From Dipteris shenzhenensis (Eukaryota), in the NCBI GenBank assembly GCA_047967505.1, contig CM106538.1: a DNA stretch of 64,000 nucleotides. One strand, given 5' to 3'. Below, piece after piece: positions 7,543 to 61,262 of the stretch (positions are counted from its first letter, which is position 1; every line of letters starts with the position of its first letter). The notes under the pieces were generated by a model. The model searched no databases. It was given only the letters and a program-made list of their open reading frames with translations, and was not told the origin of the DNA. Both the position numbers and the translations under genes were made by a program.

Positions 7543-7920
7543 CAAAATTTCCATGTTGCTTCGCCTTCGTTTCCCTAACTCTCCTTTTGGGAAACATTTT
7601 TGGCTTTTTGGCAGACTTCCTACAACCTTGGTCCATTACTCTTTATTTTTGTACTGGGTCAGATATTGGGCTTTTTGGACCATATGGCAGGATCACAACA
7701 TGAGATATTTTGGGAATCCGTTCTTGCAATCTTATGAATATTTCAGACTCTCCCTACGGCAATCTATCTATGATGCTTGCCATCAAGGAGATCTTCCTCA
7801 GTCATGCCTGGAAATAGTTTCTCTTTGCTTTTGATTTCCTGTTGAGGCTCTCTGTTTTTTGAGACCCTCATGTAAATCTTGCTGATAATATACCTCTCAT
7901 GGATTTACCCAAAAAAAAAA
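7543..7920 (+). mobile_element. 5'-truncated L1 3' fragment between (GT)n tracts
   Basis: ORF2 C-terminus (FGKHFWLFG...WVRYWAFWTIW), poly(A) at 7911-7920, (GT)n on both sides. Confidence 0.85.
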
Positions 7921-7935
7921 GAAGTGTGTGTGTGT

Positions 7936-10371
7936 ACTGTAGCCTGGCAGCATCAACATCTTCCCTCAACTTGGAAGCATGGTCTGGTTAAGCTTGTGCC
8001 CAAAAAACCTCTATGTGAGACAATGGATGATTGGAGGCCCATCACTTTGATGCCGGTTATATATAAACTTATTGCTAAAATGTTGGTACATCGGATAAAG
8101 GATATCCTTCATGATGGACTTCATCCCAGGCAATATGGTTTTGTTCCAAGAAGGCATATACATGACAATATCTCTAATACTCTCATCGCAATGGAATACG
8201 CAAAATATACAGCTCAAGATGTTTTGGTCATGCAGGTGGATGTGGCAAAGGCATTTGATACGGTACAATGGGATTATGTCTCTCAAATCATGTTTAAACT
8301 TGGTTTTGGGCCAAAGCTAGTTAATGTCATATATTGGCTTTACTCAGATTCCACTGCTCAATGCTTTATAGGGAATCATTTGTCTGAGTCTTGGACTCTA
8401 GAACGATCAGTTCGACAAGGATGCCCTCTCAGTGCTTTGCTCTATGCCATTGCTTCACATCCTTTGCTTCTTTATATGGATCATCTGGTTGATACTGGAC
8501 AGTTAGTGGGGCTTCAGATTTCTGGTTCATGGCCTTTCATTGCACAGGCTTATGCAGATGATTCATTCTTCATGCCAAAGAACAGTCCTTTGGAGCTTCA
8601 CCTATTGATGGATACCCTTTCAGATTTTGGGTTGGCAGCTGGTCTTAAAATTAATTTTCAGAAATCAAAACTCTTGCCTCTCAAGCATTGTGACTGGCAT
8701 GCTATCCTGTGGCCCGGCCAGATTATTTATCCGAAAAACATAGTAAGACATTTGGGCTATCCCATTGGCTGGAAAATCAGAAATAAGCAACAAATATCTT
8801 GGGCGTTAAACAAAATTCAGGACAAATTAGAATATTGGAAGATCTCCACTTCGCCCCTGCATGTACGGCTTCGAATTGTCCAGTCCATTGTTCTAGCTTA
8901 TGTCCAATTCTACCTTCCTCTATTACATTGGTCATCTCGAGATCTCTCTTCTTTTATGTCTCAAGCCATGGAGATTTTCTAGAAAACTAAGCTTCATAAA
9001 AAAGCTTTAAGGTTACTCAAAATGGACCTGCTTTGCTCACCAAGAATGCATGGTGGTTTGAATATAATAAACATCAAATTTCATGTGTTGGCAAGAAAGA
9101 TCACTATGCTCAAGACATTTTTTCAACAAGAGCAGTCTTGGTCTATCATGTTGGCAATTTTGTATTGGTCTATCATGTTGGCAATTTTGTATGGTCATAT
9201 CTGCACAAATGCTTATGGACATTGGCTAGTTGATCCATCGGAAGTAGTCCTTGGCAAATTTCAAGGTAAAATCCCTGGTTGTCCATTTTCTACTTCCTTG
9301 ATTCAGGATTGGAAGCAAGTTCTCTCTCACATCAAATGGTCTCTCCATCCTGTTTCTATAGCTTCCTCACTCAGAATGGAAAGCATTCATTGGAGTGCTG
9401 TGTTTTCCTCTCCCCTTGCTGTACAACAACCAATCAGAGCTTACAATCTTATGAAGTTGGGCATCCGGTTCATTGATGACGTAGTAGATACGCAAGGACA
9501 TATTCTCTCTTTTCCGGTAGCATGCCGACAATACAATCTTGGGATGCATCACAGACCTATTTGGAAAGCTATTGCTGATCTCTTACTCCCTTTGGTTCCG
9601 ATTCCAACATTGAATGTAAAAGACAAGCTTCAAGATTGGCACCTTCAGTCTTCAAGTCCAAGATTATCTTCTCGGCCTTTGCATTTATTGACTTCTATAC
9701 AAGCTTATCGATTGATATTACCTCCTCCTTGGATTGCTCATCATGCTAATTCTCTATGGCATCTGAATAAGTCATTAACCTGGTGGAAAGGAAAATTGCA
9801 ATTGATATGGAAGTTGAAAATGCCATTGAAGCAGAGACTCTTTCTATGGAGATGCATTGTTGGTATTCTTCCAGTGGGAGTGAAATTGGCTCAAAGAAGG
9901 ATTGCCTCACCTCTTTGTCCAAGATGTCATCATACTCCTAAGAGTATTCCGCATTTATTGTGGTTTTGTTCATATTCCAGAGACCTTCTAGACAAGATCT
10001 CCTATTTCTTATCTCTCAGATTTCCTGCACACAGGTTCTACAGGTTTTTCTGGATGTATGGCAAACTATCAGCTTCTTTGTCACAGTATTCTCTTTTCTT
10101 CCAATGGATCAGATACTAGGCCTTATGGACCCTCTGGCTGCAGCGAAATCATGCATATCTGAATTCTCCCCTTCAGCACCCTTATGAGTTCTTCCGAGCC
10201 TCATTGCGGCAGTCTTTATATGATGCCTTACATGAGGACGATTTAGATATTTCTTGTATTCATCTTTTCTTTTACTGCTTCTGATGGATAGGGCATTGGC
10301 TCTTTTCTTGAGCACTGCCCTGATGTAAATGAATGTTTTATAATATTATTTTCTTGGTTTCACCAAAAAAA
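7936..10371 (+). mobile_element. 5'-truncated L1 (RT + zf-RVT) of the (GT)n-associated group
   Basis: WRPITL, DVAKAFD, SVRQGCPLS, YADD and CPRC..HLLWFC motifs. Two TGG>TAG stops (8980, 10117). Poly(A) at 10365-10371 then GTGTGT. Confidence 0.93.
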
Positions 10372-10414
10372 GTGTGTGTGTACTATATTCATTGCTAGGG
10401 GTGTGTGTGTGTGT

Positions 10415-12482
10415 AGAGAGAGGTGATGGATATGGAGAGCTCTCCTGCTCCCTCCTCCCTGCCCGTACCCTTGTCCCCCCCTGTACCTCCTCATCTTTCC
10501 TCTGATCCCTCCTCGTACCTGCCCGTACAGCCTCCTCTTCAATCCGTACACATTCCGCCCGTCCTACAGCCCCCGTTTTCTCCCGTGCAGCCTCTGTCAG
10601 CCTTTGTACCTGTCCCGTCTACATCCGTACCTGTCCTGCCATCTCCTGTACAGCATCCGCTGCTTTCTGTTCCCTTCCCACAGCATCCAGTGCTGCTCCA
10701 GCCCTCCTCTGCTCCCGGCCTTCTCTGTCCGTACCATCTCTGTAGTCGACTCTTCCATTTCAGGTGCCCTATGTGCAGCCCCTGCAATCGGTACATCCTT
10801 TTGTCTCTCCTTCGGCTGTTTGCTCCTCTGCTCAGCCCCTTCCTGCCTCCATTCCCTCTACCCCTATCCCCTCTCCATTCTCTGTGCCTAGTTCCTTTTC
10901 TTCTCCTTCCTTTTCCAGCCCTTCATCTCCTACTTTTCATTATGCTCGGAAGAAGAAAAGGGATTCCCTTTCCCCATTAGTTTTGGAAGGGGTGAAGGCT
11001 GCCAAATTAGATTCTTTCGCCTTCCCCTCTTCTTCACTTCAACATGATTTGCTTCGTCAATTATGTGCTGATTCGGTGACCTCGCCTTCTGCTGCTGGAC
11101 TTTCCTTACGAAGAATTCTTTCCCCTGAACCTTTCCTTCAGAGTATTCGCTAGGAACAGCAACTTGGTGTTTGCCTTTTTTATGGGAAGAGTTATGATGG
11201 TGGCTTCTTTGCAAGCTTGGTCCTCTGCTGCAGTGGGTGTCGAGAAGATTACTTCTTTTGTGTTCATGGGCAAGGGATTCTATTTTGCTCATTGTGCCTC
11301 TGTGGACACTGTCTTCCACTTGCTTACTTTGGGTGGAGTTCATGGAGCAGGTCACTTTGCAGTTGTTATGCCTTGGGATCCTCTTTTTGATCCAGCCCGC
11401 TCCCTCCTCCACCTTTGTCCTGTTTGGGTTACCCTCAAAGACTTGCCGGTACCGCTTCTTCAGCATGTTCCTTCTCTTGCAGCCCTGCTAGGATGTGTTC
11501 TTTTCATTCCAAAGCAGAACTTCTTGGTCACAAGTAGAGATATTCGGCTATGTGTTCTTTGGGATATGGAGCAGCTTATACCTTCATGTCTGGACATGGA
11601 CTTTGGATTGCCTCATCCTCTCTGGATTCCTCTTCGCTTTGCCTCCTTTCCTAAACTTGCTATAAATGTCGCCAGTTAGGCCATTTTGCTAGAGCATGCC
11701 CATCGTCTTCTTCTCTAGCTCCTACTCTGCAGACTTCTACTCCTTCTGTACCGGTTCCTGCGGTTCCTCTTTCTTCTACCAGCACACAAGAAATCCGGCA
11801 TTCTTTCAAGCATTCTAAAGTCTGGAGGAAAGTTCAGGATGCTACGTTGGTTAAGTATTCTAATCCTTTTGCTGTTTTGTCAGTTCCGGTCCACTCCCTA
11901 CAGTGTCAGATTGTCAGGTTTCTTGTGATCCGGTTCTTGTTGCTACTTCGACGCCTGAAGTTGTTCTATTAGATTCATCTTCACTAATGCAAAATGCTGC
12001 TGTTATGCAAGATGTGGAAGAAAATCTACAGTCTCCTTCAGCTCTAGATACTAGTATTCCGGATGCAGATAGAAGCTTGTTGATATGCCTGCCCCTTTAC
12101 AGAGCCTCTCAGTCTTGGATACTGTTGTTCCTTTTTCCCTAGAATCTTTTCATCCTTGGTTGCAGCAGGTTTTTGATCCTGTGGTTCAGAAGTTTCGGCT
12201 TCCAGCTTACATTAAGAAGAATCACAAGGTAAAAAAACAACTTTGTTTTATTGATGGGGATGTCACTCCGTTACCATCACTTTTTACAAGTCAATAATTT
12301 GAAAGTGGATGATGTTCTGTTGGATTCTCCTCCAACTGATATGTAAATTTTTACTTGGTTGCCTCATGAGTTTTTTTCTTTGAGGTGTTACTTGTAAATT
12401 TTATCTTTGTACTTATTGGTGGGTTTTCACCTCTTTTTGAGGTTTCCCACGCAGAAATAAAAGATTTCACTAAAAAAAAAAA
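10415..12482 (+). mobile_element. ORF1-only non-autonomous LINE (HAL1-like), full-length copy
   Basis: A single disrupted ORF at ~10432-12346 with a Pro/Ser-rich N-terminus, DUF4283-like GKGFYF...VMPWDP, CYKCRQLGHFARACP knuckle and a conserved C-terminal block. No EN or RT. Poly(A) tail, (GT)n on both sides. Confidence 0.8.
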
Positions 12483-13590
12483 GAGTGTGTGTGTGTGTGA
12501 ATCAGCATTTTGAACTCATAATGGAGATATTTAACAGCTAGAAGGATAGCGTGATTGTTGCTTGAAAACTGAACCAAAATAATAAGTGTTGTATTTCTCT
12601 TTTGTCTCTATAGGGAAAACTCATTTCTAAGGAACTCAAGGAATCAGATTTAAAAAAATTCTTGCATCTATTGGTCCATTACACTATCAGTTCATTAATC
12701 AGAATTAATGAGTATAACTTGATAATGAGAAAACCTTGTATTTGCATTTCCTTAATTCCCTGCAAAAGCTCACATCATGCATAATGAAAAAACAACATGA
12801 CCTATCGTATGCAAAATGAGACATTTAATGAAATGGTTGGAAAAAAACTAAGCCAAGAAAACTACAGCCCCAAAGTCAGTGATGAAAAGAAGAAGGAACT
12901 TCATGATACTCTTGCAAACTGCACTGTGTCACAAACTACATGGAAATATCAGATTGAGTTCATGATCTTTATTTAATTGATAATGGCTGACAAACCTCCA
13001 ACCAAGGATAAGATCGAGTCAATTCATATGAGGCAACCCCACCATTGGCATTCTGCACAAAGAAGTACATATTAGTACGCAATAAAATGAGGCTGTAGAG
13101 ACAATACCATCAAAGCCTAGCAGCCAGTCTTCATTATAACTATGTCTGTCTTTCCATCACGAATCCAATGTTTACCCTTTGGATTTCTTGGGAATGGGAG
13201 GAGAAGCGGGCCTTATATTATCGTACAGCCCCATACTTCCTGTTTAGCACTCCCTGTTCTATCCATGCTTTTAGTCATGTGAGAAGATTTTGGCTACATG
13301 ATAGAATGCAACAATATGCATGCAGTCTTCTCTTTCTTTCTTTCTTTCTTCATTAAGACTCCACTTTAAAACCTTTACTTTTTGCAAACATAGCACAGCG
13401 TAAACACTATGACAACATTACTTACATTATCAGACCTTCACATCGGATGCAGAGAAAATAAATCAAGACATCATCACCTTAAAATTCAAAATTGCACAAA
13501 TAGACCATGCTGAGTTATTGTTTCTACATTGGCAATGCATTAGACACTAGAAAAAGATCCGATGTAGTTCCTACAGTCTAATGCATAACC

Positions 13591-16500
13591 TGTAGAAATC
13601 GACCAACAAAGGGTACCCCCAGTGAAAGACTGATAGAATAGCCCAGGAGCTCACACAGTCTGTGAGGAGTGGAATCACAAACTTCTTAAACTTATGTGCA
13701 TCAGATAGATATGCAAACTAGTAAATAGACAATGATCCAACCAGATATAGAAACCACCAAAAGAATATACTTCCATCCAAAGCTATGGACACAATACAAA
13801 AGAGAGAGATCCAAGGTCCTTTGATCTTACCACAAGGTGCTTCTACTATCTACCGGATATCTCTAGAACACTGAGCCCGTGTGCTCCACCTTGAGCATAT
13901 GTAGACTCTTCGTCCCGATCCTTCTACCTTACTGCCTGTATACAGCCTAGGTAGCAGCCTTCCAAGCTAGGTCTGCAGCTTCAAGGTTCCTTCACATCCA
14001 GTGATGAGGCCCAAGGAAGATCTCTGTGGCTGCTCCAAACTGCTGGAGATGTGCTGCTGCAAGTGATACTGAAATGAGACCTGAGGCCTCTCCTTTTATA
14101 AGCCCCCAAGGGGCTGAGAACTCCACCGACCCAAGCCTCTAGATCTAGCCGACTTGGTCAGTTCTTCTTGGTCGCCCTAGCCGACTTTGTTGCAGGCGTT
14201 CACCTGCCCAAAACTTCCCCTATAGGGGCCCAAAAGCAAGGGCACTTGGCCCATACTTCCATGCAGGGTCCAGCCCTTGCTTCAGCCCACAACTAGGCCT
14301 GGTTGGCAGGCTATACCCTTGTTAGAATTATTGCTATAATTTAGCAGTGACCAATGTAATGTAATAAGTAGGTTAGGGGCACTTTTCCCTCACTTAGAGG
14401 TTTTTTCCCCTAACCACAGTTAGTTCACTAACTATGGTTAGTGAAGTGATAAGGTTTTGTAAACCCATCACTCCATTCAGTTGTAATGCACTCTCATCTA
14501 ATTGCAACTACGGTTTCAGCTCTCACACTCTCCTGCTCTTGTTCTCACCTTTGCTCTCTCTCCCACTCTCACATTTGGTATCAGAGCATGCAGTTATGAT
14601 TCTTCCAACGATGCATCAGCTTTCAGTGTCAATGAGACACATAATACATGGTATTTTGACAGCGGTGCCTCAAAGCATATCACTTCCAGGAAGTGTCTCT
14701 TCACATCTTTGCATCCACCACCCATTGGTAAAAAGGTCACATGTGCCAACAACTCCTCCTATTCAGTTCGTGGTACAGGAGAAGTTGAACTTACAACATT
14801 CAGAATTTCTGATGTCTTGTATGTGCCTGGTATCACAAAAAATCTACTTTCAGTGTCCACTCTTAACAGAGCTGGATTTCAGGTCATTTTTTAAGATGAC
14901 AAGTGTGCAGTCCATGATAGAGAGCATGACTATGCCTTGAGATTGTCTGGCACTTTGTTGCGTGGTCTTTCTCAGCTTGACATGTATCAGAAAAGACCAG
15001 CACATGCTCTTACAGTTTCCACTCCTACTGCTGCAAATTTTCAGTGGAATGTTCATCAATTGGACATAAAAACAGCCTTCCTTAATGGAGACTTGTTGGA
15101 AGAGGTTTATGTCAAACAACCTCCAGGCTTTGAAATTTCAGGAAATGCACTTCAGGTATGCAAGCTGAATAAAGCTTTGTATGGGCTGAAACACTCCCCA
15201 CGTGCATGGTATGCAAAGATTTATGCCTTTCTGACCAGCAAGGGGCTGCACAACAGTCCAACTGAAAGCACCCTCTACATCAAGAAGGATGGGGGGGATA
15301 TTTTAGTCATCATTCTTTATGTACATGACTTACTGCTCACAGGGTCAAATGAAGATAATATTGCAGATTTTAAAGCTGAATTGGAGACCACTTTTGACAT
15401 GTCAGATTTGGGGCTGCTACACTTTTATTTGGGGATCCAGTTCACTCAAGAGCAAAGTGGCATCGGTATGTCTCAATCCAAGTATGTGCAAAAACTCTTG
15501 GACAGATTCAACATGCAGGATTGTAAGCCCATAGCTACTCCCATGGAGCCAGGGCTGAAGCTTACAATGCATGAAGCAGGTGAATCAATTGATGTCACAC
15601 TCTACAGTTAGGCTGTTGGATGCCTCATTTATCTCTGCAATACACGACCTGATATTCAGTTTGCAGTTTCTCAGGTGAGCAGATATATGCACAGCCTAAA
15701 GACTAGGCATTTGCAGGCTGTAAAATGCATCTTCCGTTACTTGCAAGGTACAAAGTCTTTTGGCTTGATGTTTCCCAGGGGGGGTGACTTGCAGATGCAT
15801 GCCTACAGTGACTCAGATTGGGCTGGAGACTATGACACTAGGCAGTCCACAAGTGGCAATTGTTTCTTTTTGGGCAAAGCTTGTATTTCTTGGTTGAGCA
15901 AGAAACAATCTACAGTGGCTACCTCTTCATGTGAAGCTGAGTACAAGGCAGCTTTCACAGCGACAATTGAATGTGTTTGGCTGCGTCGTTTATTTGCTGA
16001 TCTTCATCTTTCATTGGAGGGTCCTTCTCCAATTCTCACTGATAGTCAGAGTGCTATTGCAGTGGCAAAGAATCCTGTGTTTCATGCTCACACGAAGCAC
16101 ATTGAGGTTCACTATCACTACGTCACAGAGAAGTTGCATGCAGGAGAGATCAGCATGATCTATGTGTCAACACATGACAATGTTGCAGACATTTTCACCA
16201 AAGCACTTCCACGTGAAAAGTTTGAGGCATTTCGCAGTGCCCTGAACTTATCTCCTTTTGGTGATTGATCATTTCCTTGTACATGACATTGGCACTACAG
16301 GGGGGTGTTAGAATTATTGCTATAATTTAGCAGTGACCAATGTAACATAATAAGTAGGTTAGGGGCACTTTTCCCTCACTTAGAGGTTTTTCCCCCTAAC
16401 CACAGTTAGTTCACTAACTATTGTTAGTGAAGTGATAAGATTTTGTCACTTAGACAAAACCCATCACTCCATTCAGTTGTAATACACTCTCATCTAATTG

Positions 16501-22030: not shown

Positions 22031-25000
22031 CGATTTCCTCTCCATGTACTGGTATGAGTATCTTCCCCTTGTTATCCACCATATCCATCGGCTTAGCCTC
22101 GGCTCCCGTTGTCAGTTTCCACATCTACCGAGCCACTAAATAACTCCGTTCCAGATAGGGTCATTTGTCCGTCTAGTTTCCCGGACTCTCCAAAGTTAGG
22201 GATGGTGAAAGAAAGAAATATGGGGGAGGAGGAAGGGAGACAAGGGGCTGAAGAGGCTTCTGAAATCGACATCTCTGCTGCTAAACCACATAGCAAAGTC
22301 GAACAAACTCAACCTTCTGTAGACCAGAAATCTGTATGCACTTGAGTGAACCTGAGTCACCCTTCTTCTCGCAACGGCACTGTCCTCCGGTCGTGGAAGT
22401 CGATTCCCAAGAGCTTTTGAAGTCACAAAACAGGTCATGCATCATGGCCTTCCTGGAAAGAACTGCATCTAGCCATCACACCTTTTTTATATAATATGCA
22501 GAAGAGTACAATGTTGTAGACCTTAATAGTTTTAGAGATGAGTTGACTCTAAAGACTTGTACGACGATCATACTCATAGCATGCGCTGAGAGATATTCTT
22601 GTCAATAACTTCTCCAAGCTTGATAGAGCTTAATGACAGTACATGACTTTTGCAAACAAAAGAAAGAAATTTAAATGTACACTACTCCCGATGAGGAAAG
22701 CATCCAAAGGTAGATACTGCCGCGCCCCCCGACGACGACCCGCGTAGCCCAGCCTCCAACCCGACGGCGTCGCGCCCCCGTCCCACGGTGGCGCCTCGGG
22801 CTCCCGAGTCGGGTCGCGACATGTGGTGGCCCGAACGCTGCCGCAGCCCCGGCCACGTCCGACGTGCCCACGCCTCCCACCCGACGTTACCCCGGCCCCG
22901 GCCATGCCCCGCACCTCCGACCCGACGCTGCCGCGCCCCCCGACGACGACCCGCGTAGCCCAGCCTCCAACCCGACAGCGTCGCGCCCCCGTCCCACGGT
23001 GGCGCCTCCGGCTCCCGAGTCGGGTCGCGACGCGTCGTGGCCCGAACGCTGCCGCACCCCCGGCCACGTCCTGCGCGCCCACGCCTCCGACCCGTCGTTG
23101 CCGCGGCCCCGACCACGCCCCGCGCGCCCGGACCTTCGACCGGACGCTGCCGCGCCCCCCGACGACGACCCGCGTATCTTAGCCTCCAACCCGACGGCGT
23201 CGCGCCCCCGTCCCACGGTGGCGCCTCGGCCTCCCGAGTCGGGTCGCGACGCGTTGTGGCCCGAACGCTGCCGCACCCCCGGCCACGTCCTGCGCGCCCA
23301 CGCCTCCGACCCGACGTTGCCTCGGCCCTGGCCACGCCCCGCGCGCCCGCACCTCCGACCCGTCGCTGTCGCGCCCCTCGACGACCACCCGCGTAGCCCA
23401 GCCTCCAACCCGACGGCGTCGCGTCCCCGTCCCACGGTGGCGCCTCGGGCTCCCGAGTCGGGTCGCGACGCGTGGTGGCCCGAACGCTGCCGCACTACCG
23501 GCCACGTCCTGCGCGCCCACGGCTCCGACCCGTCGTTGCCGCGGCCCCGGCCACGCACCGCGCGCCCGCACCTCCGACCCGACTCTGCCGCGCCCCCCGA
23601 CGACGACCCGCGTAGCCCAGCCTCCAACCCGACGGCGTCGCGCCCCCGTCCCACGGTGGCGCCTCGGGTTCCCGAGTCAGGTCGCGACGCGTGGTGGCCC
23701 GAACGCTGCCGCACCCCCGGCCACGTCCTGCGCGCCCACGCCTCCGACCCGATGTTGCTGCGGCCCCACCACGCCCCGCGCGCCCGCACCTCCGACCCGA
23801 CGCTGCCGCGCCCCCCAACGACGACCCGCGTAGCCCAGCCTCCAACCCGACGGCGTCGCGCCCCCGTCCCACGGTGGCGCCTCGGGCTCCCGAGTCGGGT
23901 CGCGACGCGTGATCGCCCGAACGCTTCCGCACCCTCGGCCACGTCCTGCGCGCCCACGCCTCCGACCCGACGTTGCCGCGGCCCCGGCCACGCCCCGCGC
24001 GCCCGCAACTCCGACCTGACGCTGCGGCGCCCCCCGACGACGACCCGCGTAGCCCAGCCTCCAACCCGACGGCGTCGCGCCCCCGTCCCACAGTGGCGCC
24101 TCGGGATCCCGAGTCGGGTCGCGACGCGTGATGGCCCCAACGCTTTCGCACCCCCGGCCACGTCCTGCGCGCCCACGCCTCCGACCCGACGTTGCCGCGG
24201 CCCCGGCCACTCCCCGCGCGCCCGCACCTCCGACCCGACTCTGCTGCGCCCCCCGACGACGACCCGCGTAGCCCAGCCTCCAACCCGACGGCGTCGCGCC
24301 CCCGTCCCACGGTGGCGCCTCGGGCTCCCGAGTCGGGTCGCGACGCGTGATGGCCCGAATGCTTTCGCACCCCCGGCCACGTCCGGACCTTCGACCGGAC
24401 GCTGCCGCGCCCCCCGACGACGACCCGCGTATCCCAGCCTCCAACCCGACGGCGTCGCGCCCCCGTCCCACGGTGGCGCCTCGGGCTCCCGAGTCGGGTC
24501 GCGACGCGTTGTGGCCCGAACGCTGCCGCACCCCCGGCCACGTCCTGCGCGCCCACGCCTCCGACCCGACGTTGCCTCGGCCCCGGCCACGCCCCGCGCG
24601 CCCGCACTTCCGACCCGTCGCTGCCGCGCCCCCCGACGACGACCCGCGTATCCCAGCCTCCAACCCGACGGCGTCGCGCCCCCGTCCCACGGTGGTGCCT
24701 CGGGCTCCCGAGTCGGGTCGCGACGCGTTGTGGCCTGAACGCTGCCGCACCCCCGGCCACGTCCTGCGCGCCCACGCCTCCGACCCGAAGTTGCCTCGGC
24801 CCCGGCCACGCCCCGCGCGCCCGCACCTCCGACCCGTCGCTGCCGCGCCCCCCGACGACCACCCGCGTAGCCCAGCCTCGAACCTGACGGCGTCGCGTCC
24901 CCGTCCCACGGTGGCGCCTCGGGCTCCCGAGTCGGGTCGCGACGCGTCGTGGCCCGAACGCTGCCGCACTACCGGCCACGTCCTGCGCGCCCACGCCTCC

Positions 25001-50183: not shown

Positions 50184-50833
50184 CTGCATTGACCAATACA
50201 ATCAATTTAGAATATGATACACATTTCTTATTGATAGTTTGTGCCATCTGACTCACTAACAATCAAGGAGCTTATAGCCATAGCCAGATATATGACAGCC
50301 ATGTTTAATTGATCATTAAACACTGAAACTAAGAATGTTAGAGCTCTTACAGAAAGGGGAAGCCTTAAGCCATCAATTTATTTCACATGCTAAACATGAG
50401 CTGTGAACTTATGTTTCATCAAGTCGAAGAAATTTCATAATAATGTTTTTACCCATGATTCAATCACCCCTCTCCATCTTGAGAATTCCGTTACATATAC
50501 CCTCTCCATCATGAGAATTCCTTTACGTATTATTCAAATTACAGCAATATGGATTTACTGTCTGCTTTCAAGAAAGCTCTACAAGGAAAATCAGCAAAAA
50601 CGGCAACACCAAATGTATGACCACTATGAATATGTAAACGGCAGTACAAAATGATCTTGGGCACTTCTAAAAAAATCCTTGGCAAACTCCAACGTTTCTT
50701 GCATATCTTGCAAGAATCATCTGGCAGCATCATTTTTACTTCCCTTGAATCCTACCATTACTGGTGACTTAGGTAGAAATCCGTACATAAGCATAAAAGG
50801 CCTAAAACCTTGCATGACACAGACACACATACA

Positions 50834-51865
50834 CTTTTTTTTTGGTGAAATCATATATTTCTTTGTGGGAAACCTCAAAAAGAGGAAAGGAGGAGACACT
50901 TTTTTTTTAAGTGAAAGCTTTGATTGATTATATTACAAGAATAGTCACCTTCAAAAAAGAGGCGCTAGATAATACATCAACTAAAGATCTCAGTACAAGC
51001 CAAATATACATCCTGATCTGCTTGGAGAGCCTGCAAGCAATCAAAGAAAGATTGTTGCAGAGAACGCTCAAAGAAAGCAAACAAAGGAAAATTGGGATCG
51101 CTAAAGACTTTACAATTGCGGTCCGTCCATAAAGTCCAAAGTGCCCAATAGCGAACCCAAACAAAGAAAAGATGAAACTCTGATCGCTGTGGATGAAAAC
51201 CAAAGAGCCAAAAAAAATTCCCGAAGAGAACAGTGGGGAATCTCACTCATAGCCTCTATCGAAGAGAATCCACACACACACACACACACACACACACTTT
51301 CTTTCTTTTTTTGAAAACTTTTGATTGATTATATTACAAGAGTAGCACCTCCAAACGAGGCAACCAAAATTACATCAGCTGAAAATCTCAGTGTATGCTA
51401 GATACACTTTTTTTTTTCTTTTTGAAATCTTATATTTATGTGTGGGAAACCCCAAAAGAAGTAAAAACCCACCAATAAGTACAAAGGAAAAATTTACAAG
51501 TAAAGCCTCAGAGCAAAAGTCATGAGGCAGCCAAGTAAAAAGTTACATATCAAGCTAGAGAAGGATCAAACACAACATCCTCCAGCTTCAGATTATTGCT
51601 TTGTAAAAACTGATGCAGTGTAGAAACCACACCATCAATAAAAACAAGCTGTTTTTTGCCCTTGTGATTCTTCTTAATATAGCCGGGCACTCCAAATTTC
51701 TGAATCACAGGGTCAAAAACCTGTTGTAACATGGGTGGAAGAGAATCCAGTGAAAATGGCACATCTGCATCCCGAACAGAAGAAGACTCTGGCACAGGCA
51801 TCAACATCTGTATCCTCCAACGAACGAATTGCTTCTAATAAAGTAGGGCTCAGCATCTCAGCTAG
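50834..51865 (-). mobile_element. Stack of four short 5'-truncated LINE 3' ends separated by CA-rich spacers
   Basis: T runs at ~50834, 50900, 51298 and 51408, each preceded by CAC/(CA)n. Two pieces match the ORF1-only family 3' end and two match L1 ORF2 3' ends. Confidence 0.8.
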
Positions 51866-51986
51866 CACACACGCACACACACTTTTTTTGGTAAAATCCA
51901 TTGTATTTATAAGCTCATGAATTTACAATATGGGAAGTCTCCCACACACTAGCATAGAACTCCGAAAGAGAGCCCGATAGAAGAAC

Positions 51987-54900
51987 TCAAAAACAAGTAG
52001 AGAACACTTCAAGGCAAGTAGCATCCAAATCCCTTGCAGCAAGACTGTCATGTAAAGACTGCTTAAGGGACATTCTGAAGAAAATATATGCCTGAGGAAA
52101 CTGTTGACCCATCCTAGAATGCAGTCTCTGTGTCCAGATGGTCCATAATACCCAAAAGCGAGTCCAATGAAAGAAAAGGAGTAATGGAGACATCTGAGAT
52201 GAGCAGCATCCAAACATCCAGAAAAGTTTCCCAAATCTGATAGAAGGGAACCGAAGCCGCAGTAAATGAGAAACATGAGTGATCAATGTGCGAGAGTGCG
52301 GGCAAAACCATAATAAGTGAGGAACTGTCTCGCGGGGATGAGAGCAACGGGGGCAGAAAGGAGAAGCAATGCGGCGAGCTGCCAATTTCACCCCAATGGA
52401 AAAGGCTCCCACTATACATCTCCAAAAGAAAAGCCTCTGTTTCAATGGCAATTTGGTTTTCCAGATTTTCATGAGACGGGATTGCCACCAAGATAAAGGC
52501 CTATCCAAATTCCAAAGAGTGTTGGCATGCTTGTCAATCCATGGCTGTGGAAGAAGAAATCTGTAAACCTTCGAGGAAGTCAGATTGTGTATCGAGAGTG
52601 TATGTGTAGCAGGAGGTATGGAAGTCAAATTCCAGTCCATTAATCTGTCCTGTGCAAACAGTGGAGGAACCGGAACAAATGGCTGCAACATAGTTGAAAG
52701 TGTTCTCCAAATGGATCTATGATGCAGGCCCAAGGAGAATGTCCTGCAAGCTTGTGGAAATGAAAGTGTATAGCCTTGTTGATCCACAACATCACCAACA
52801 AATCTTATGCCCAATTTCATGAGATTATATGCTTTGATAGGTGCCTGTAAAGCGAGAGGCGATGCAAACACCTTGCTCCAATGGATGCTTTCCAATCGAA
52901 AAGAATTGCCATGATGAGAGGAAGCACCTGTCCATTTTGCATATGAAAGAATTCTCTTCCAATCATGAAGAAAAGCAGTAGAAACAGGGCAACCAGGAAT
53001 TTTTCCCTGAAAGGTAGATAAAACTGCTTCCCAGTGATCTGTAATCCAATGCCCATATGCATGGGAAGCCATGTTTCCACACATAGCTGCTAACATAATA
53101 GCCCATGGTTGTTTTTGCTGAAAAAAATCAGCAATCATAGTGCTCTTTCTTGCCAACATATGAACCTGGAGATTGAGAATATTCAGCCCCCCATGAGTCT
53201 TGGGTGAACAAATAGACTGCATAGGTAGTAGTCGCAAAGCTTTTTTAAGAGATTTGCTTTTCCAAAATATCTCCATAGCTTGGGACATATAAGAGGCCAA
53301 ATGCTTGAAAGACCAAGGAAGAAGAGGCAAATAAAATTGCACATATGCCATAATGATGGACTGTACTATCCGGAGTCGAACATGTAGAGGCCAAGTGGAC
53401 AAATGCCAGTATTCCAGCTTCTTATTGATCTTTTGAAGCACCCATTTGAGCTGTTGCTGCGGAGTAATATTCCAGCCAATGGGGTATCCGAGATGTCTGA
53501 CAATAGTAAGGGAAGAGATAATGTGGCCTGGCCAAAACAGTGCATGCCAATCAGCTTCTTTCAAAGCTAGAAGTTTTGATTTCTGAAAATTGATATGCAG
53601 TCCAGCAGCTATGCCAAAATCATTCAGTGTATGCATCAAACGAGAAAGATCACTTTGAGAATTCCTTGGCATGAAGAATGAATCATCAGCATAGGCCTGT
53701 GCAAGAAAAGACTGTGCCCCTGGAATTTGCAAACCATGAAGCTGTCCTGTATCTGTCAGATAGTCCATATGCAAGAGTAACGGATGGGTAGCAATGGCAT
53801 ACAGTAGGGAACTAAGAGGGCAACCCTGTCTCACTGAGCGAGTCATAGTCCAGGTTCTTGACAACCCACCACCAAGCAAGCACTGTGCCGTGGCGTGAGA
53901 ATAAAGCCAGTAAATGATGTGGACAAGTCAAGAGCCAAATCCCAATTTTTGCATAGTTTGAGAGATGAAATCCCAATGGACAGTATCAAAAGCTTTCGCA
54001 ATGTCTACTTGCAGAATGAGAACATCTTGTTTAGAATATTTGGCATACTCAATCGCAAGCAAGGCATTGGAGATATTGTCAGTGATCTGCCTTCTGGGGA
54101 CAAACCCATACTGCCTAGGATGAAGTCCTGCTTGCAAGAGGAAGCGAACCCTGAGGACAATCATTTTAGCAATGAGTTTGTAAATGACAGGCATGAGGGA
54201 TATAGGCCGCCAATAAGCCATCGTCTCACACAACCTTTTTTTGGGAATCAATTTTACTAGGCCATGTTTCCAGGATGGAGGAAGAGATTGTTCTGCCCAA
54301 GCATGATTGATCATTAGAAGGAGAGTATTCTTGAGATCACCCCAAAATGCACGGAAGAATTCAACAGTCAGTCCATCCCAACCAGGGGAGCTGCTTTTGC
54401 GTAGATGACTCAAAGCATCTTCCAGTTCACTAAGCATAAAAGGCTGTTCCAATGCATGGGCCTGTTCCCGAGATACTATGGGCTGAACATGCATAAGAAA
54501 TTGAGACCTGGCTGCATTTACTTGCATCAAATGATCAGGTTGAGAGGAAAGGAGCTGCTGAAAGTGACTAGAACATTGCAATTCCAAGTCTGATTTGGAA
54601 GTGGTCCAGGTGCCATCAGCCTTCTTGATCCTGCAAATATCCTCCTTTCGCCTATCCGCATGGAGACTTTTAAAAAAGGCTTTGGAGGAGCAGCCCTTAT
54701 CCAAAAGGGGTTTCATACGAGCTCGGATTTGCCACTTCTTTAATTTGCGAAGATCATTTTGATGGATGATATGAACCGCATAAGCACAAGAATCCTGTTC
54801 AGAAGAAGTAAGCTGCCTATGAGAACTGATTGCATCCATTTGCTGCTTGTGGGATTGAGCCCATTTTATCTTGAGCCGAAGGTTTTCCATGTAACTCCGT

Positions 54901-55805
54901 CCATAGTCTTGAATAACAGCCTGTAAACGATGAGCAAGGCTGATCCAAGCAAAATCCATATCCTCCTGAGCATGTAAGAGGAGGGGACGGACAGCCACTC
55001 TCACCATGTTCTGAAATTGTTGATGAAGCAAGTAGGCACTATTAACATGGAGCAAGCGATGACCAAAAAAAGGCATATCATCTGTCAGACGTGCTATTGA
55101 TAATGTCAAGCATACTGGGAAATGATCAGATAGCAGGAGGGAGTGATCAATCCGCAATGTACATGTGAAATCAGCATACTGCTGAGCATGCAGCAAATAC
55201 CATCTGTCAAGTCGAGCCCAGTAATGATTAAAAGCATTGTGATGATATGTATAACCCATATCTGTGTCCCTTGTTGAGAGCCATAGATCTTCAGCATGCA
55301 GAGATGAGAGCATATCTTCCCAATGTCGGAACTCAGTGGGGATCATGTGAGAGCGATGAGTAGTATTATCTTGGGAGGCAGGCGAATTGTTAAAGTCTCC
55401 ACACAAAAAAGCATTGGAAAGCCATGGGTATTGTTTGAGGGAGTCCCACATTTGAGCTCTAGTCGCAAAAGTTTGTGAGGCATAAACAGATGCTATTTCA
55501 TAGAGAGTATCCTGCCAGGTGCACCTGATCACCATCCATCGACCCTGAGGATCATTGTGGGCCACCGTGGGCTGTATATCATGTTTTACAAGCATGCAAA
55601 CCCCCGAAAAGTGCATTGTACCAGCATAAAAAATATCATAACCAGCATAGTGGCCTTGCTGACCAGCCAAGAAATGTTGATTGTGTTCTTGTAAGGAGAT
55701 CACATCGGGATGCATTCTATGTACATAATGCCAGAAGAGTCTCCACTTATTGGCATTGCAAAGACCCTGAACATTGTATGTAATGCAAGTGATTGAAGTA
55801 GACAT
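51987..55805 (-). pseudogene. LINE ORF2 (APE endonuclease, RT, zf-RVT), 1273 codons with a single in-frame stop
   Basis: TYNVQGL, LQEH, GDFN, RLDRWY, SDHFPV, DIAKAFD, RQGCPLS, YADD and CPRC motifs. TGA at 53928-53930 is in frame with the downstream 630-aa ORF. Confidence 0.93.
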
Positions 55806-55852
55806 AAAAGATATGTACAGTCAAACCAAAAGGCAGAATAGAATGTAAACTG

Positions 55853-57097
55853 TCAGGCCTCAGCCATGACATCAACATCCACCTGGGCTCCTGGATCATT
55901 AGCTCTATGATCCTCATCATTATCACATACAGGGATGCCTCTTTTTAGCACATCAACCCACAGTTGAGAAGCAAGGCTGTCAGCAGGGGAAGAGGTCTGG
56001 CCAGGGGTAGAAATTGAAGCATCCCAATGGCGAGATTGTAGTGGACGTGGTTTGAGAGCAAAAACCTTTTTGGGTTGCTGCCAGGCACCCTGGGGAGAGA
56101 CATGAGATTCTGAAATTTTGCCCTTACCCTTATCCTTTTGCTTAGCTGAAACCTGAAGTACATTTTCCTTGGAAGGGACAGATTTGAGAGCCACATCACC
56201 CAGTTTGGTAGGCATTGCCTTAGACCCCGAGGGATAAGTCGGAGGGGGAGTATTTTCTGGAGCAATAGCTGTGGGAGGAAGCTGATGCAGAACTGCAGGA
56301 CACTGTGAGGCTAAGTGGCCAAACTTATGGCATGTGAAACAAGCCCCTGCAAAAACTCCCCATTTCAAGTCAAAATATTTTTCACCAAGGGGAACATCCT
56401 CCACTTCGACCGCAATGGAAGGAGGGGTTGGGTGATCTGTATCCCAAAGAATACAAAAGCGATTGCGATTACCCGAAGGGCGGGGTGGGCAAACAACTTG
56501 CCCCAAAGTGGCTGCCAAACTTGGTAACTCAGCCCTCATATAGTCTGGAAAATCCACTACCTCAACCCATACGGGGCAATGATGTCGAATGAGGCTGTGG
56601 TAATCTTTGTTTGGCGACCATGGCATGACATGCACCATTTGTCTGCCATAGAAAAGGGGCGACATCTCCAAAATCTGCTGGCGATATGAGGCATCTGAAA
56701 AGTGTACCTCATAAAAACCCCTAGAAGCAAAATATACCCCTTCAACAAAGCAGCCTCCCAACAATGCCTGAACCCATTGAGCCACATCATTTGCTGAAGG
56801 AAGCTTTCCTGGGAAGAAGATAATAACTGCTTGCTGAGAGAATTTTCGAAGAGGAGCAACCAATGATGGAAGCTTCAACTTGTATTTGATGGCCGGGGGA
56901 GGTTTGGCCCACTCCTTCCGGCTGTACTGAAATTCATCTTTAAGCATATCAAAGACATAGTGAGCGTCGACCGAATCTGTAGTAGAAAAATCAACCTGTT
57001 GTCTTTTGGAGTCCCGGGTCGACTCCTTACGAGAGTAGCTTTTGAACTGATCTTCCATGAAGAGAAGCAGGGCAGGATTGAAGGAAGGGCAGAGCAA
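55853..57097 (-). CDS. LINE ORF1 protein (DUF4283-like region plus CCHC zinc knuckle)
   Basis: Open 414-aa frame with RGFYEVHF, VMPWSP, PVWVEV and CFTCHKFGHLASQCP. The true start codon is uncertain. Confidence 0.88.
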   Translation of the reverse strand: MLCPSFNPALLLFMEDQFKSYSRKESTRDSKRQQVDFSTTDSVDAHYVFDMLKDEFQYSRKEWAKPPPAIKYKLKLPSLVAPLRKFSQQAVIIFFPGKLPSANDVAQWVQALLGGCFVEGVYFASRGFYEVHFSDASYRQQILEMSPLFYGRQMVHVMPWSPNKDYHSLIRHHCPVWVEVVDFPDYMRAELPSLAATLGQVVCPPRPSGNRNRFCILWDTDHPTPPSIAVEVEDVPLGEKYFDLKWGVFAGACFTCHKFGHLASQCPAVLHQLPPTAIAPENTPPPTYPSGSKAMPTKLGDVALKSVPSKENVLQVSAKQKDKGKGKISESHVSPQGAWQQPKKVFALKPRPLQSRHWDASISTPGQTSSPADSLASQLWVDVLKRGIPVCDNDEDHRANDPGAQVDVDVMAEA

Positions 57098-57519
57098 AGA
57101 AGGGCTGTACGGACGAAGAATAAGCTAGAGATGCGAGCTGTACGGAAAGAAGGAAGAAGCAGGGAGAATAAAGACTGTACGAATTTCGGAAGTGGAGAGG
57201 GGGCTGACGCAACAGGCAGGACTGTGTGTACGGAAAAGGGCAAGAGATACGACGGTGAAACAAGGAAGAAAGCGTAGGGCAAGCTGACGGGACGGAGCAG
57301 CGCAGGAGGAGAGAAGAGTGGCTGTACGGCGTCCGTACGAAAGTACGGCGTCCGTACAGTTGTACGGACAGAACGCAGGAGCGAGTGGAAGAACGAGGGG
57401 AACGCGGACGTGTACGGAGAGCGCAGGTACGATCAGAGACCACGAGTCGAATTCGTTTCTCTCGCGCACATGGAATCCCTCGCCGTCGTCACTTCTCCTC
57501 CACCACCACGCACACCCAC

Positions 57520-57609
57520 ACCCACACACACACACACACACATGCTCAACCCACACACACACACACTTTTTTTGGTAAAATCCACACACACACACACACC
57601 AATAAGAGC

Positions 57610-57642
<33 letters not shown>

Positions 57643-57743: not shown

Positions 57744-57745
<2 letters not shown>

Positions 57746-59220
57746 TTTTTTTTAGTAAAATCTTTATATTTCTGTGTGGGAAACCTCAAAAGAGGTAAAA
57801 ACCCACCAATAAGTACAAGAAAAAAGTTTTTACAAGTAAAACCTCAGAGCAAAAGTCATGAGGTAGCCAAGTAAAAAGTTACATATCAAGCTGGAGGAGA
57901 GTCAAACACAGCATCCTCCAGCTTCAAATTGTTCTGCTGTAAAAACTAATGTAGTGATGAAACCACACCATCAATAAAAACAAGTTGTTTTTTGCCCTTG
58001 TGAAGATTCCAGTAAAAAAGGTACTTCCGCATCCCTGACAGAAGAAGACTCTGGCACAGGCATCAAAGGCAGAGAAGCTAAATCAACATCCGTATCTTCC
58101 GATGAAAAAGCTGCATCTGATGAAGCAGGGTTCAGCATTTGAGCTTCATTCGGAGGATCAATCTAAGTAAGAGCAGGGGCAGTATCCTGAGAGAGAGCAT
58201 GCATGTCATCTTGTAAATTGCCCTCTGCAAGGGGTACATCCATATCCTGAGTAGAAGATAACTGATGGTGCTCAACAAGGGTGCAATCCTGAGCTTCTTC
58301 AGCAAGAGGAAGATTTGCCTGTGATTTATCAACCTTCCTCAAGTACTGCTTCGAAGCAGTAGAGGGCTTCGCCAAAGAAGCCATAGCAGAAACCGGAGAA
58401 GAAGGGAGAGTAACCAGAAGGATCGAAAAGCGGATCCGAGGGCATAACATAGGCGAAGAAACCCGCTCTCGGAACGCCAACATCATTGACAAGGGGGCTA
58501 CCACCTCAGTCGAAGTGCATTGGGCATAGTAAAATCCTTTGCCTAGAAAGACAAAGGAAGAAATACAATCCAGACCCACTGCAACATCAGCCCAATGACG
58601 GAGCTAAGCTGAAGATAAAACCCTGCCCATGAAGTATAGGCAGACTCCAAATTGTTGAGCCTGTCGAAGACCAGAGACCAAAAGGGCAAAAGCCAAGGAA
58701 CAAACAAGCAGGAAACTCGATGAAGGAACTTCTATAACAGAGGCAGAGCACAATTGGCGAAGAAGATCCAACTGGAGAGAAGAAGAAGAGCCATCAGAAT
58801 TATCCAGCTTTGCCGATTTGATGAAAGGTGAGGCAGGCAGACCACCATGCTTTCCCTAAAGGAACACACGAGTAGGAGCAGAGGCAGGAGGAGGTGCCGA
58901 GGCCGAGAAAACAAAAGAGAGAGGGGACTGTACAGGTTGTACGGACTTCCGTACATACTGTACGGTCGACCGTACAGCCTGTACGGAAGTCCATATAGCA
59001 AGAACGGAGGGTTGGACCCTACGGGAGACTGCGCAGGAGATTGTACGGGCAGCGGTATAGAAGGCAGCAGCCTACACGTCAACGGTACGGAAAACCGTAC
59101 AGCTGTACGAAAGACATAGGAGCTGGCAGGGTCAGGGATTGTACGGACGGGGATTGTACGGATGGGGATGGTACGAACGGAAACAAGGAGGGAGAGAAAG
59201 CGGGCTCCATCGCTCGCTCT
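57744..59220 (-). mobile_element. ORF1-only non-autonomous LINE, diverged and internally deleted copy
   Basis: FVFLGKGFYYAQC and the same C-terminal block and 3' UTR as 10415-12482. Poly(A) tail, (CA)n flanks. Confidence 0.8.
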
Positions 59221-59286: not shown

Positions 59287-61262
59287 TTTTTTTTTTTAGT
59301 GAAATCTTTTATTTCTGTGTGGGAAGCCTCAAAAAGAGGTGAAAACCCACCAATAAGTACAAAGGAAAAATTTACAAGTAAAGCCTCAGAGAGAAAAACT
59401 CATGAGGCAGCCAAGTAAAAAGTTACATATCAGTTGGAGGAGGATCCAACAAAACATCATCCATTTTCAGATTATTTACTTGCAGAAAGTGATGCAAGGG
59501 AGTGACATCTCCATGAATAAAACAAAGCTGTTTTTTACCCTTGTGATTCTTCTTAATACAGGCTAGGAGCCGAAACTTCTGAACCACGGGATCAAAAACC
59601 TGGTGCAACCAAGGATGAAAGGACTCCAGTGAAAAAGAAACATCAGGATCCAAAACTGAGAGGCTCTATAAAGGGGTAGGCAGCTCAATAAGCTACACCA
59701 GAGAAAAGGGAATATCTACATCCGGAATAACAGTATCTGCAGCTGAAGGAGACGGTAGATTTTCTTCCACTTCTTGCATAAAAGCAAAATTTTGCAGCAT
59801 TGAAGAAGAATCTAACAAAACAACTTCAGGTGTCGAAGTAACAACAAGAACCAGATCACAAGGAACCTGACAAGGTGACACTGTGGAGAGTGGATCTAGA
59901 AGCAAAATGATTTGAATCCGTAACCAACTTAACCTCCTGAACTTTCCTCCAAACTTTAGAAGGTTTAAAAAAATGCCCGACTTCCAGGGTACTGGAGGAG
60001 GAAAGAGAAACTGAAGGAACCATAGTAGAAGGAGCAGAAATCTTCGAAGGAGGAGCTGAAGTAGAAGAAGGGCATGCTCTAGCAAAATGGCCTAACTGGC
60101 GACATTTATAGCAAGCATTAGGAAAAGAGGCAAAGCGAAGTGGAATCCGGAAAGGATGAGAAAAACCAAAGTCCGCTTCCAGACACGAAGGGATCAACTG
60201 CTCCATGTCCCGGTGACCAAGAAATCTTGCTTGGGAATGAAAAGAACACGGCCGAGCAGAGCGGCAAGAGAAGGGACGTGCTGAAGAAGCGGGACCGGCA
60301 AATCTTTAAGAGTAACCCAAACAAGACAGAAGTGGAGGAGGGAGCGGGTTGGATCAAAAAGAGGATCCCAAGGCATAACAACTGCAAAGTGACCTACTCC
60401 ATGAACTCCACCCAAATTAAGCATATGAAAGACAGTGTCCACAGAGTCACAATGAGCAAAATAAAATCCCTTGCCCATGAAAACAAAATAAAGTAAAGGG
60501 AAACACCAAGTTGTTGTTTCTGGTGGATACTTTGAGCAAAGGTTCAGGGGAAAAAGTTCGTCGTAAAGAAATTCCAACAGCAGAGGGTAAGGCCACCGAA
60601 TCAGCACACAATTGGCGAAGAAAGTCTTGTTGAAGCGAGAAAGAGGGAAAGGCAGAAGAATAGAATTTGGCAGCCTTTACCCCTTTGAAAAATGACGGTG
60701 ACAGGGAATCCCTTTTCTTCTTCCGAGCATAGTGAAACATAGGAGAGGGGACGCTGGAAAGGTTAGGAGAGGAAAAGGAAAGAGGAACAGGGAACGGAGA
60801 GGATACAGGGAAATCGAAGTGGAGGTAGGAAGGGACAAATTGGCTGAAAAAAAGGGATGAGAAGAGGAGAAGGCAGCCAAGTGGCGTGGAGGATGCCCTT
60901 TGCGAAGCTGGAAAGGTACGGACGACACCTGGACAGAAACAGGTACGGACAGCAAAGGCGGCTGAGAAGGTACAGATGACTGCAGGCAGGGTATGGGCTA
61001 CTGCAGGCAGGGTGCGGACAGCAGGCAAGTTGGAAGAATTGATGACGGGATCTATACAGATTGCTGCAGGGACTGTACAGACTGGAACGGGCTGTATACG
61101 GACGATGGGGACAGAGGTACGGACATTTGCGAGGGCTGTACGGATGAAGGCAAGGAAAGTACAGGCAGGTACAAACATGATACGGAGGATGGCAGAGGTA
61201 CGGAAGCAGTAACGGGCAGGGAGGGGGGAGCAAGAGAGCTCTCCATGCTCACTGCGTCCATG
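59287..61262 (-). mobile_element. ORF1-only non-autonomous LINE, full-length copy
   Basis: Disrupted ORF at 61246->59423 starting MESSLAPPSLPV, with HYARKKKRDSLSP, VMPWDPLFDP and CYKCRQLGHFARACP. Colinear with 10415-12482. Confidence 0.85.

Follow-up and report, generated by a model that had tools for sequence, protein, structure and literature searches.

What kind of retroposon has an open reading frame (ORF) of the ORF1 type, a poly(A) end, and no ORF2? The question is raised by an element at positions 10415..12482 of a 64,000-nucleotide stretch of contig CM106538.1 from Dipteris shenzhenensis (assembly GCA_047967505.1), hereafter the window. We favor, with a probability of roughly 60%, a non-autonomous family of the L1 clade, comparable to HAL1 and HeT-A, that carries ORF1 only, supplies an RNA-binding protein of its own, and depends for insertion on the ORF2 protein (ORF2p) of an autonomous L1 specific for (GT)n. 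As read from its copies, the element is about 2.0 kb long, with a very short 5' untranslated region (UTR), one long ORF, a structured 125-nt 3' UTR containing AATAAA, and poly(A).

The first step was to define the members of the family. A BLASTN search of the 64-kb window with 10415-12482 as the query recovered all the copies listed in a preliminary description of this DNA, and a five-way MAFFT alignment agreed with it on three end-to-end copies, two 3' pieces, and at least two subfamilies:

10415..12482, + strand: copy 1, 2068 bp, end to end, subfamily I
59287..61262, - strand: copy 2, 1976 bp, end to end, subfamily I
57744..59220, - strand: copy 3, 1477 bp, end to end, subfamily II, with 13 GTAC boxes
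51408..51865, - strand: piece 4, 5'-truncated, subfamily II, with a 78-codon open C-terminal frame and the 3' UTR
50834..50895, - strand: piece 5, a 62-nt 3' end with poly(A), 5'-truncated

Compared with copy 1, copy 2 is 82.7% identical over 1252 bp (59287-60496) and 80.3% identical over 350 bp (60488-60834), and a further match of 94% over 35 bp (61212-61246) corresponds to the 5' end common to both. The values for the other members are 81.5% over 265 bp for copy 3 (57744-58003), 79.0% over 367 bp for piece 4 (51410-51772), and 90.2% over 51 bp for piece 5 (50835-50885). In the alignment, the 3' end is common to all five copies, each of which closes with a poly(A) of 8-11 A, and the three long copies share a 5'-terminal ATGGAG located 11-18 nt from the (GT)n flank, that is, from the start of the element. 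Three of the five are full-length and two are 5'-truncated. The two subfamilies are deep and set copies 1 and 2 apart from copy 3 and piece 4, the last two being 87.7% identical over 268 bp.

The neighbors differ for every copy, and copy 1 lies on the opposite strand about 47 kb from the others, which indicates separate insertions and not the duplication of a block. Segmental or tandem duplication of an array, instead of retrotransposition, would fit the clustering of copies between 50.8 and 61.3 kb in a repeat-rich region; nevertheless, the neighbors, the poly(A) length, and the (GT)n tract are particular to each copy, the two truncated copies begin at different points, and no two copies share flanks beyond (GT)n, so that we regard this explanation as very improbable. 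The five copies are one family of poly(A) retroposons that arose by independent insertions.

The insertion sites link this family to the long interspersed nuclear elements (LINEs) around it. In all 12 LINE 3' ends of the window, poly(A) is directly followed by (GT)n (5/5 in the family and 7/7 in L1s), and all the (GT)/(AC) runs of at least 12 bp in the window sit at LINE poly(A) junctions. The ends and the arrays that they form are as follows:

7911, 10365, and 12472, + strand: LINE poly(A)-(GT)n ends
nine positions between 50843 and 61284, - strand: LINE poly(A)-(GT)n ends
7911-12498, + strand: head-to-tail LINE array
50831-61284, - strand: head-to-tail LINE array

There is a single orientation within each array, and the (GT)n of one element precedes the 5' end of the next. 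Target-site duplications are unreadable because (GT)n is present on both flanks. The family thus shares its (GT)n target and its orientation with at least three autonomous L1 families, as would be expected if it uses L1 ORF2p. Two of the L1s that adjoin family members are of particular relevance for the comparisons that follow:

51883..57510, - strand: L1-B, autonomous and near-intact, with a GTAC-box 5' UTR; candidate ORF2p donor
55856-57058, - strand: L1-B ORF1, 401 open codons, with DUF4283 and CCHC domains
51990-55820, - strand: L1-B ORF2, 1277 codons, with endonuclease (EN), reverse transcriptase (RT), and zf-RVT domains and one in-frame stop at codon 631
7936..10371, + strand: L1-A, 5'-truncated, with RT and zf-RVT domains and a poly(A)-(GT)n end immediately upstream of copy 1

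L1-B looks younger than the ORF1-only copies that adjoin it. At 57567-57590 (- strand), inside the array and with (GT)n on both sides, there is an L1-B-like 3' end that consists of about 20 nt and its poly(A), an extreme case of 5' truncation.

The copies lack EN and RT. Pfam returned no match to either in the 11 ORFs scanned from the copies, and a tblastn search with L1-B ORF2, which recovered ten or more stretches of ORF2 in other parts of the window, produced a single chance-level match (E 1.5) in the four longer copies. ORF2 is missing from all three end-to-end copies, and in the four informative copies it is the ORF1 C-terminus, and in none of them the ORF2 C-terminus, that stands directly upstream of the 3' UTR. 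Within the 64-kb window, there are no longer copies in which the family ORF1 is followed by ORF2. The family ORF1 is 28-33% identical to the L1-B ORF1 protein (ORF1p) (E 1.3e-17), which makes L1-B ORF1p about as distant from it as the full-length ORF1p-like proteins of a large protein library (31-34%). The preliminary description had been right on both counts, the lack of EN and RT and the merely distant similarity to the ORF1 of the neighboring L1. Neither the family ORF1 nor its 3' UTR occurs in any of the at least four L1 families of the window, the 3' UTR is found at none of the seven (GT)n-associated L1 3' ends, and no parental autonomous L1 lineage was identified within the window. We also considered piece 4 as the 3' UTR of L1-B, which would tie the family 3' end to an ORF2, and rejected this assignment on finding that the poly(A) and (GT)n of L1-B itself precede piece 4.

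What these copies encode can be followed best in copy 1, whose features are listed below together with the domains of copy 2; dN/dS stands for the ratio of nonsynonymous to synonymous substitution rates.

10426..10862, + strand: 5'-terminal ATGs (10426, 10432) and C/T-rich leader with 10 GTAC boxes
10863..11141, + strand: conserved pre-domain coding segment (FHYARKKKRDS...SPEPFL), dN/dS 0.36, codon-position differences 16/10/29
11206..11511, + strand: DUF4283 match (Pfam), with a predicted tandem RRM-like module at about 11125-11640
11655..11705, + strand: CCHC zinc knuckle (CYKCRQLGHFARAC), Pfam zf-CCHC
12100..12346, + strand: C-terminal module (…FDPVVQKF..YIKKNHKGKKQL.FIDG…NNLK.(E/D)DV), dN/dS 0.08-0.28 within and between subfamilies
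12347..12471, + strand: 3' UTR of 125 nt, with two predicted hairpins and AATAAA at 12456-12461
12418-12452, + strand: second 3' UTR hairpin, with the inner stem CCUC-UUUUU-GAGG inside an outer stem
12472..12498, + strand: poly(A) of copy 1 (11 A), then its (GT)n flank
60242-60481, - strand: DUF4283 of copy 2 (Pfam)
60066-60116, - strand: CCHC of copy 2 (Pfam)

Both domains are detected by Pfam in copies 1 and 2, with E values of 2.5e-8 and 1.2e-7 for DUF4283 and of 6.1e-7 and 1.2e-6 for zf-CCHC, respectively. The two copies had earlier been called intact; their domains are indeed present, but intactness applies to their ends only, given that the frames are broken in all three long copies. Traced by tblastx-conserved protein and by the phase of the leader motif, the reading frame of copy 1 has six frame changes and at least one stop; copy 2 has four frame changes, three stops, and deletions of 73 bp and 28 bp, and copy 3, whose frame is also broken, is without the second half of DUF4283 and without the knuckle. 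Reconstructed across these lesions, the ORF appears to comprise, in this order, a Pro/Ser/Val-rich N-terminal region with in-phase CCGTAC boxes, the DUF4283 module, the CCHC knuckle, an acidic linker, and the C-terminal module, and its putative length is about 640 codons from the 5'-terminal ATG, of which the evidence supports at least about 495. In copy 1, it ends with a TAA stop at 12344-12346, and the 3' UTR begins directly after. The C-terminal module, of about 80 codons, is kept in all four copies that reach this point and is family-specific: no relative was found in the L1s of the window, in Pfam (two C-terminal frames), or in a protein-database search with its 78 amino acids, the last blank being weak evidence, and a query of the ESM Atlas yielded low-recognition, unrelated clusters only.

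For the central part of the protein, the longest unbroken stretch (11080-11676, 199 amino acids) was modeled with AlphaFold2 from a 40-row alignment of library matches, and the mean predicted local distance difference test score (pLDDT) was 86.5. The best Foldseek matches in the PDB are tandem RRM pairs, with RRM12 of IMP3 first (E 3.8e-4) and then HuR, Hrp1, hnRNP A1, and Sxl; their probabilities are 0.97-1.00 and their TM-scores only 0.28-0.44, from which it follows that the two RRM-like halves are probably oriented differently in the model. The family ORF1p is accordingly predicted, from the model and the domain matches, to be an RNA-binding protein of the plant L1 type I kind (RRM-like plus CCHC). 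A representative library of 1.84 billion proteins contained 103 ORF1p-like matches, the best of which was a 150-amino-acid fragment with 56% identity, and the full-length proteins P0004, P0005, and P0007 are the ones that are 31-34% identical to the family ORF1; the ten library matches that were examined were all on Logan contigs of 0.9-7.3 kb. A homologous-protein search with the DUF4283 segment was empty at two settings, blanks that are weak evidence. In metagenome scans, a 24-nt pattern from the 3' UTR had no matches, and of the 69 pattern matches from a scan guided by the protein, none was confirmed.

Is this ORF a relic, or has its protein been maintained? Nei-Gojobori counts were made over the nine ungapped in-frame segments common to copies 1 and 2 (449 codons); stop codons, the leader, which could not be aligned, and the sequence beside frameshifts and deletions were excluded. 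There are 93.5 synonymous differences over 324.5 synonymous sites and 114.5 nonsynonymous differences over 1022.5 nonsynonymous sites, which corresponds to an overall dN/dS of 0.33, a value that is lowered by the choice of frame in segments A, B, E2, F, G, and H, picked by amino-acid identity and openness. The ratio is 0.12 in the DUF4283 core and 0.16-0.20 in the C-terminal module. Differences at the three codon positions number 65/43/101 (P = 4.5e-6), and a conservative control null that takes the best of three phases for each segment gives P = 0.011; in the three segments where Pfam or homology sets the frame, they number 14/6/33 (P = 1.9e-5). The decay of both copies after insertion means that the measured values overstate dN/dS (omega) in the active lineages. 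Between the subfamilies, the proportion of differing synonymous sites is 0.53-0.89, near saturation, that of nonsynonymous sites is 0.17-0.31, and omega is 0.08-0.28 where computable. The low nonsynonymous divergence and omega compared with the near-saturated synonymous sites indicate, as judged from these alignments, that the ORF1 protein was under constraint while the two subfamilies diverged. A signature of purifying selection on the ORF, whose absence the preliminary description had named as one of two refutations of its interpretation, is present both overall and between subfamilies.

The 5' part of the element raises a separate question, namely whether the C/T-rich leader is itself coding. 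The leaders of the long copies, of about 450 nt, contain 9-13 GTAC each, mostly as CCGTAC, compared with about 1.2 expected and a maximum of 5-6 in 500 shuffles (10 against 1.1 expected in copy 1), and the CCGTAC form is absent from the remainder of each element. In copy 1, seven of the ten GTAC are in phase with the ATG and two further ones are in the downstream ORF1 frame; in copy 2, eight of nine are in phase with the 5'-terminal ATG; in copy 3, they form runs of 4, 3, and 6. The spacing between GTAC is a multiple of three in 22 of 29 cases in the family versus 4 of 10 in L1-B (binomial P = 3.4e-6). The 11 GTAC in the 5' UTR of L1-B do not keep to one phase, and the ORF1 ATG is preceded, at a distance of 22 codons, by a stop; for these two reasons, the L1-B leader is non-coding. 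We had entertained the same status for the family leader, a non-coding 5' UTR like that of L1-B, and dropped it after the phase analysis. On the other side, tandem duplications of 15 and 21 nt in the leader could mimic an in-phase spacing, and for that reason we only lean toward an ORF that starts at the 5'-terminal ATG, with about 640 codons and a Pro/Ser/Val-rich N-terminus. The earlier proposal of an ORF start 10-20 bp from the 5' end is thus plausible, and is favored by the in-phase GTAC, without being free of this objection.

The leader is probably an N-terminal coding extension that doubles as an internal promoter. The GTAC core is bound by SBP-domain factors, as described in PMC4606839, and from the boxes themselves we infer a promoter function. 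Seven CCGTAC/GTACGG boxes also occur within about 120 nt at 41680-41800 (- strand). An apparent intron follows this cluster closely, and near 41494 (- strand) there begins an ORF of BED-zinc-finger-like type, with a Pfam zf-BED match (E 0.008) that is below the cut-off. The cluster at the BED-finger ORF suggests that the GTAC boxes could be a general promoter module of the source genome.

At the other end of the element, the 3' UTR is 83-91% identical between subfamilies, whereas at the synonymous sites adjacent to it more than half of the positions differ, so the 3' UTR is constrained in its own right. With its 125 nt and a poly(A) in 5/5 copies, it is the shared 3' end of about 130 bp noticed previously. 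Both hairpins are predicted in the four copies that have a 3' UTR, with z scores of -3.3 to -4.8 and with equal stability in 0-1 of 200 shuffles, and Alifold agrees with the two hairpins. Similar predicted two-tier hairpins, with different stems, are located 40-65 nt before the poly(A) in the L1-A, L1x, and L1-C copies. The cross-family MAFFT alignment of the 3' hairpins (A5) was out of structural register, and a motif count was used in its place. Matches to CTC-(4-9 nt, at least 70% T)-GAG number nine on both strands of the window. Six of them are followed within 110 nt by a LINE poly(A), and the zone so defined represents about 1% of the searched sequence. Four of these six belong to the ORF1-only family and the others to L1-A and L1x, which amounts to three independent families:

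7850, 10300, and 12431, + strand: CTC-(U-rich loop)-GAG inner stem
59338, 57794, and 50884, - strand: CTC-(U-rich loop)-GAG inner stem

Looser versions of the same motif are present in L1-B and L1-C. In one plant L1 lineage and its short interspersed nuclear elements (SINEs), a conserved 3' hairpin is proposed as a recognition element (PMC3472496), and by analogy the hairpin of our family might be recognized by the RT.

These properties of the 3' end also bear on a different origin of the copies, as processed retrocopies of a host gene, in which the mRNA of a domesticated DUF4283-CCHC gene would have been picked up by (GT)n-targeting L1s. Poly(A), 5' truncation, and AATAAA suit any mRNA retrocopy, and the seven CCGTAC boxes upstream of the unrelated BED-finger ORF (41494-41800, - strand) mean that the boxes are not specific to LINEs. 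However, a retrocopy would hardly be expected to show a 3' UTR better conserved than synonymous sites or a 3' hairpin motif common to L1 families, and five copies in 64 kb, three of them full-length, in two subfamilies near-saturated at synonymous sites, speak against it as well. We consider a host-gene origin quite unlikely.

Several observations weigh against an ORF1-only family, in addition to the choice of frames and the leader duplications mentioned above. None of the three long copies has an open ORF, the knuckle is missing from copy 3, and the acidic linker (segment F) has a dN/dS of 1.17. Only 1 of the 31 pairs in the Alifold structure shows a compensatory change. What the family shares with the L1s of the window at its 3' end is only the short hairpin motif and a GATTTCAC-like terminal segment of about 10 nt, and no partner L1 with a common 3' tail was identified in the window. 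Finally, there may be, outside the 64-kb window, an autonomous L1 that has the ORF1 and 3' UTR of the family, in which case the selection signature would be that of the parent.

This last point leads to the alternative of an autonomous parent L1, so far unseen and carrying this ORF1 and 3' UTR, that repeatedly sheds by-products without ORF2, through internal deletion or through splicing of its transcript, while selection acts on the parent. The lack of ORF-intact copies (0/3) would be accounted for, the sample is small at 64 kb, and the leader with its GTAC boxes has the same character as in L1-B; moreover, HAL1 reportedly arose from L1 several times in mammals (PMC5753468), and the loss of ORF2 is recurrent in telomeric elements of Drosophila (PMC13534243). 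Nevertheless, the junction between the stop codon and the 3' UTR is common to both deep subfamilies, so any deletion must predate their split or have recurred exactly. It is also difficult to reconcile by-products of this kind with the presence of the ORF1 C-terminus, and not that of ORF2, upstream of the 3' UTR in 4/4 informative copies, or with the absence of this ORF1 (28-33% identity) and of its 3' UTR from all of the at least four L1 families in the window. For these reasons, we judge the by-product explanation unlikely.

Under the reading that we prefer, an ORF1-only family inserted by the ORF2p of other elements, the cycle would proceed as follows. The element would be transcribed from its internal GTAC-box promoter, and the ORF1p would coat the RNA of the element that encodes it. 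The resulting ribonucleoprotein would capture the ORF2p, with its EN and RT activities, of a co-resident autonomous L1 that nicks (GT)n/(AC)n, possibly L1-B. Target-primed reverse transcription from the poly(A) would then insert a copy, often 5'-truncated and in a fixed orientation, in the microsatellite, and repeated insertions into (GT)n would build head-to-tail arrays with L1s.

How does such an element compare with those already described? HAL1 elements end in poly(A), are subject to 5' truncation, and rely on ORF2p, as is the case, or for ORF2p is proposed, in our family. HAL1 is described as a mammalian non-autonomous L1 derivative of several origins that encodes ORF1p only (PMC5753468), and the present family is likewise ORF1p-only, without ORF2. 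In contrast to HAL1, its ORF1p is of plant type I (DUF4283/RRM-like plus CCHC) and not of the Transposase_22 type, it has no identified parental L1, its 3' UTR is strongly constrained and structured, and its insertions in the window are confined to (GT)n and head-to-tail arrays. In Drosophila, according to the cited sections of PMC13534243, HeT-A and telomeric elements of the Jockey clade with ORF1 (gag) only depend on a co-resident ORF2, form head-to-tail arrays with autonomous elements, and can found new ORF1-only lineages; the loss of ORF2 is described there as frequent in telomeric Jockey elements and not in non-telomeric ones. The design of our family is closer to these elements than to HAL1, an analogy of mechanism and not of membership: it belongs to the L1 clade and not to Jockey, its target in the window is an internal (GT)n and not a chromosome end, no telomere repeat appears beside the arrays in the tandem-repeat table of the window, and no benefit to the host is implied.

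According to PMC5203782, plant L1 ORF1p is marked chiefly by the combination of DUF4283 and zf-CCHC, and this domain pair is the same in the family and in L1-B. Unlike plant L1s of type I, the family ORF1 is not followed by ORF2, has a long N-terminal repeat region, and ends in a C-terminal module without detectable relatives. LINE1-1_ZM and ZmSINE2/3, a plant L1/SINE pair of the stringent type, have a conserved 3'-terminal hairpin that is proposed to be needed for recognition by the RT (PMC3472496); our family differs from this pair in that it would be a protein-coding rider, not a SINE, and in that the hairpin motif and the last 10 nt or so, not the whole tail, are shared. The EKA/AVRk1 family of Blumeria, described in PMC4641428 as a LINE-linked, ORF1-derived gene family, resembles ours in being ORF1-derived and LINE-linked and differs in being a family of fungal effectors. 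The element of D. shenzhenensis is thus of a kind already known, although its lineage and its setting are new, and it is a member of neither HAL1 nor HeT-A. We found no description of an ORF1-only LINE derivative from plants in open-access full text.

Other features of the window are listed here for completeness:

754-1643, - strand: CCHC knuckle (Pfam E 5e-5) and a DUF4283-like stretch that weakly matches L1-B ORF1p (tblastn E 0.057)
1776-2546: G-rich (GGAGGG)n-like array that adjoins the preceding CCHC region
14895-15608, + strand: Ty1/copia-type reverse transcriptase (RVT_2, E 1.1e-59), a fragment of a long terminal repeat retrotransposon unrelated to the ORF1-only family
22717-28939 and 26192-31717: two long GC-rich tandem arrays

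The region at 754-1643 may be another ORF1-type fragment, and there is no ORF2 match downstream of it within the window. The GC-rich tandem arrays include a unit of 219 bp, repeated about 8-9 times and occurring twice at about 92% match, and C-rich units of 23-180 bp with CCCCATG and TTGCGCGCATGTCGCGTA motifs.

A more far-reaching interpretation can be put forward tentatively, and we think it possible without being probable: the family would be a self-sustaining ORF1-only lineage of the L1 clade in plants, with a division of labor like that of HeT-A and TART transferred to an internal microsatellite, competing for ORF2p through the shared two-tier 3' hairpin and carrying a GTAC-box promoter of the SBP type within the coding sequence of its N-terminal repeat. 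If this were true, LINEs that insert at specific targets and form arrays would give rise to ORF1-only partners again and again, not only in flies but also in plants. A plant case would be useful in that it offers a clear signature of selection on ORF1, a structured and constrained 3' UTR, and a microsatellite target shared with several autonomous L1 families. It also bears on whether LINEs with specific targets and array-forming habits favor ORF1-only partners. In the annotation of large plant genomes, some of the "genes" with DUF4283 and CCHC domains may be ORF1-only elements. Finally, a plant case would provide a second independent system in which to ask why an ORF1p is worth keeping for the parasite of a parasite.

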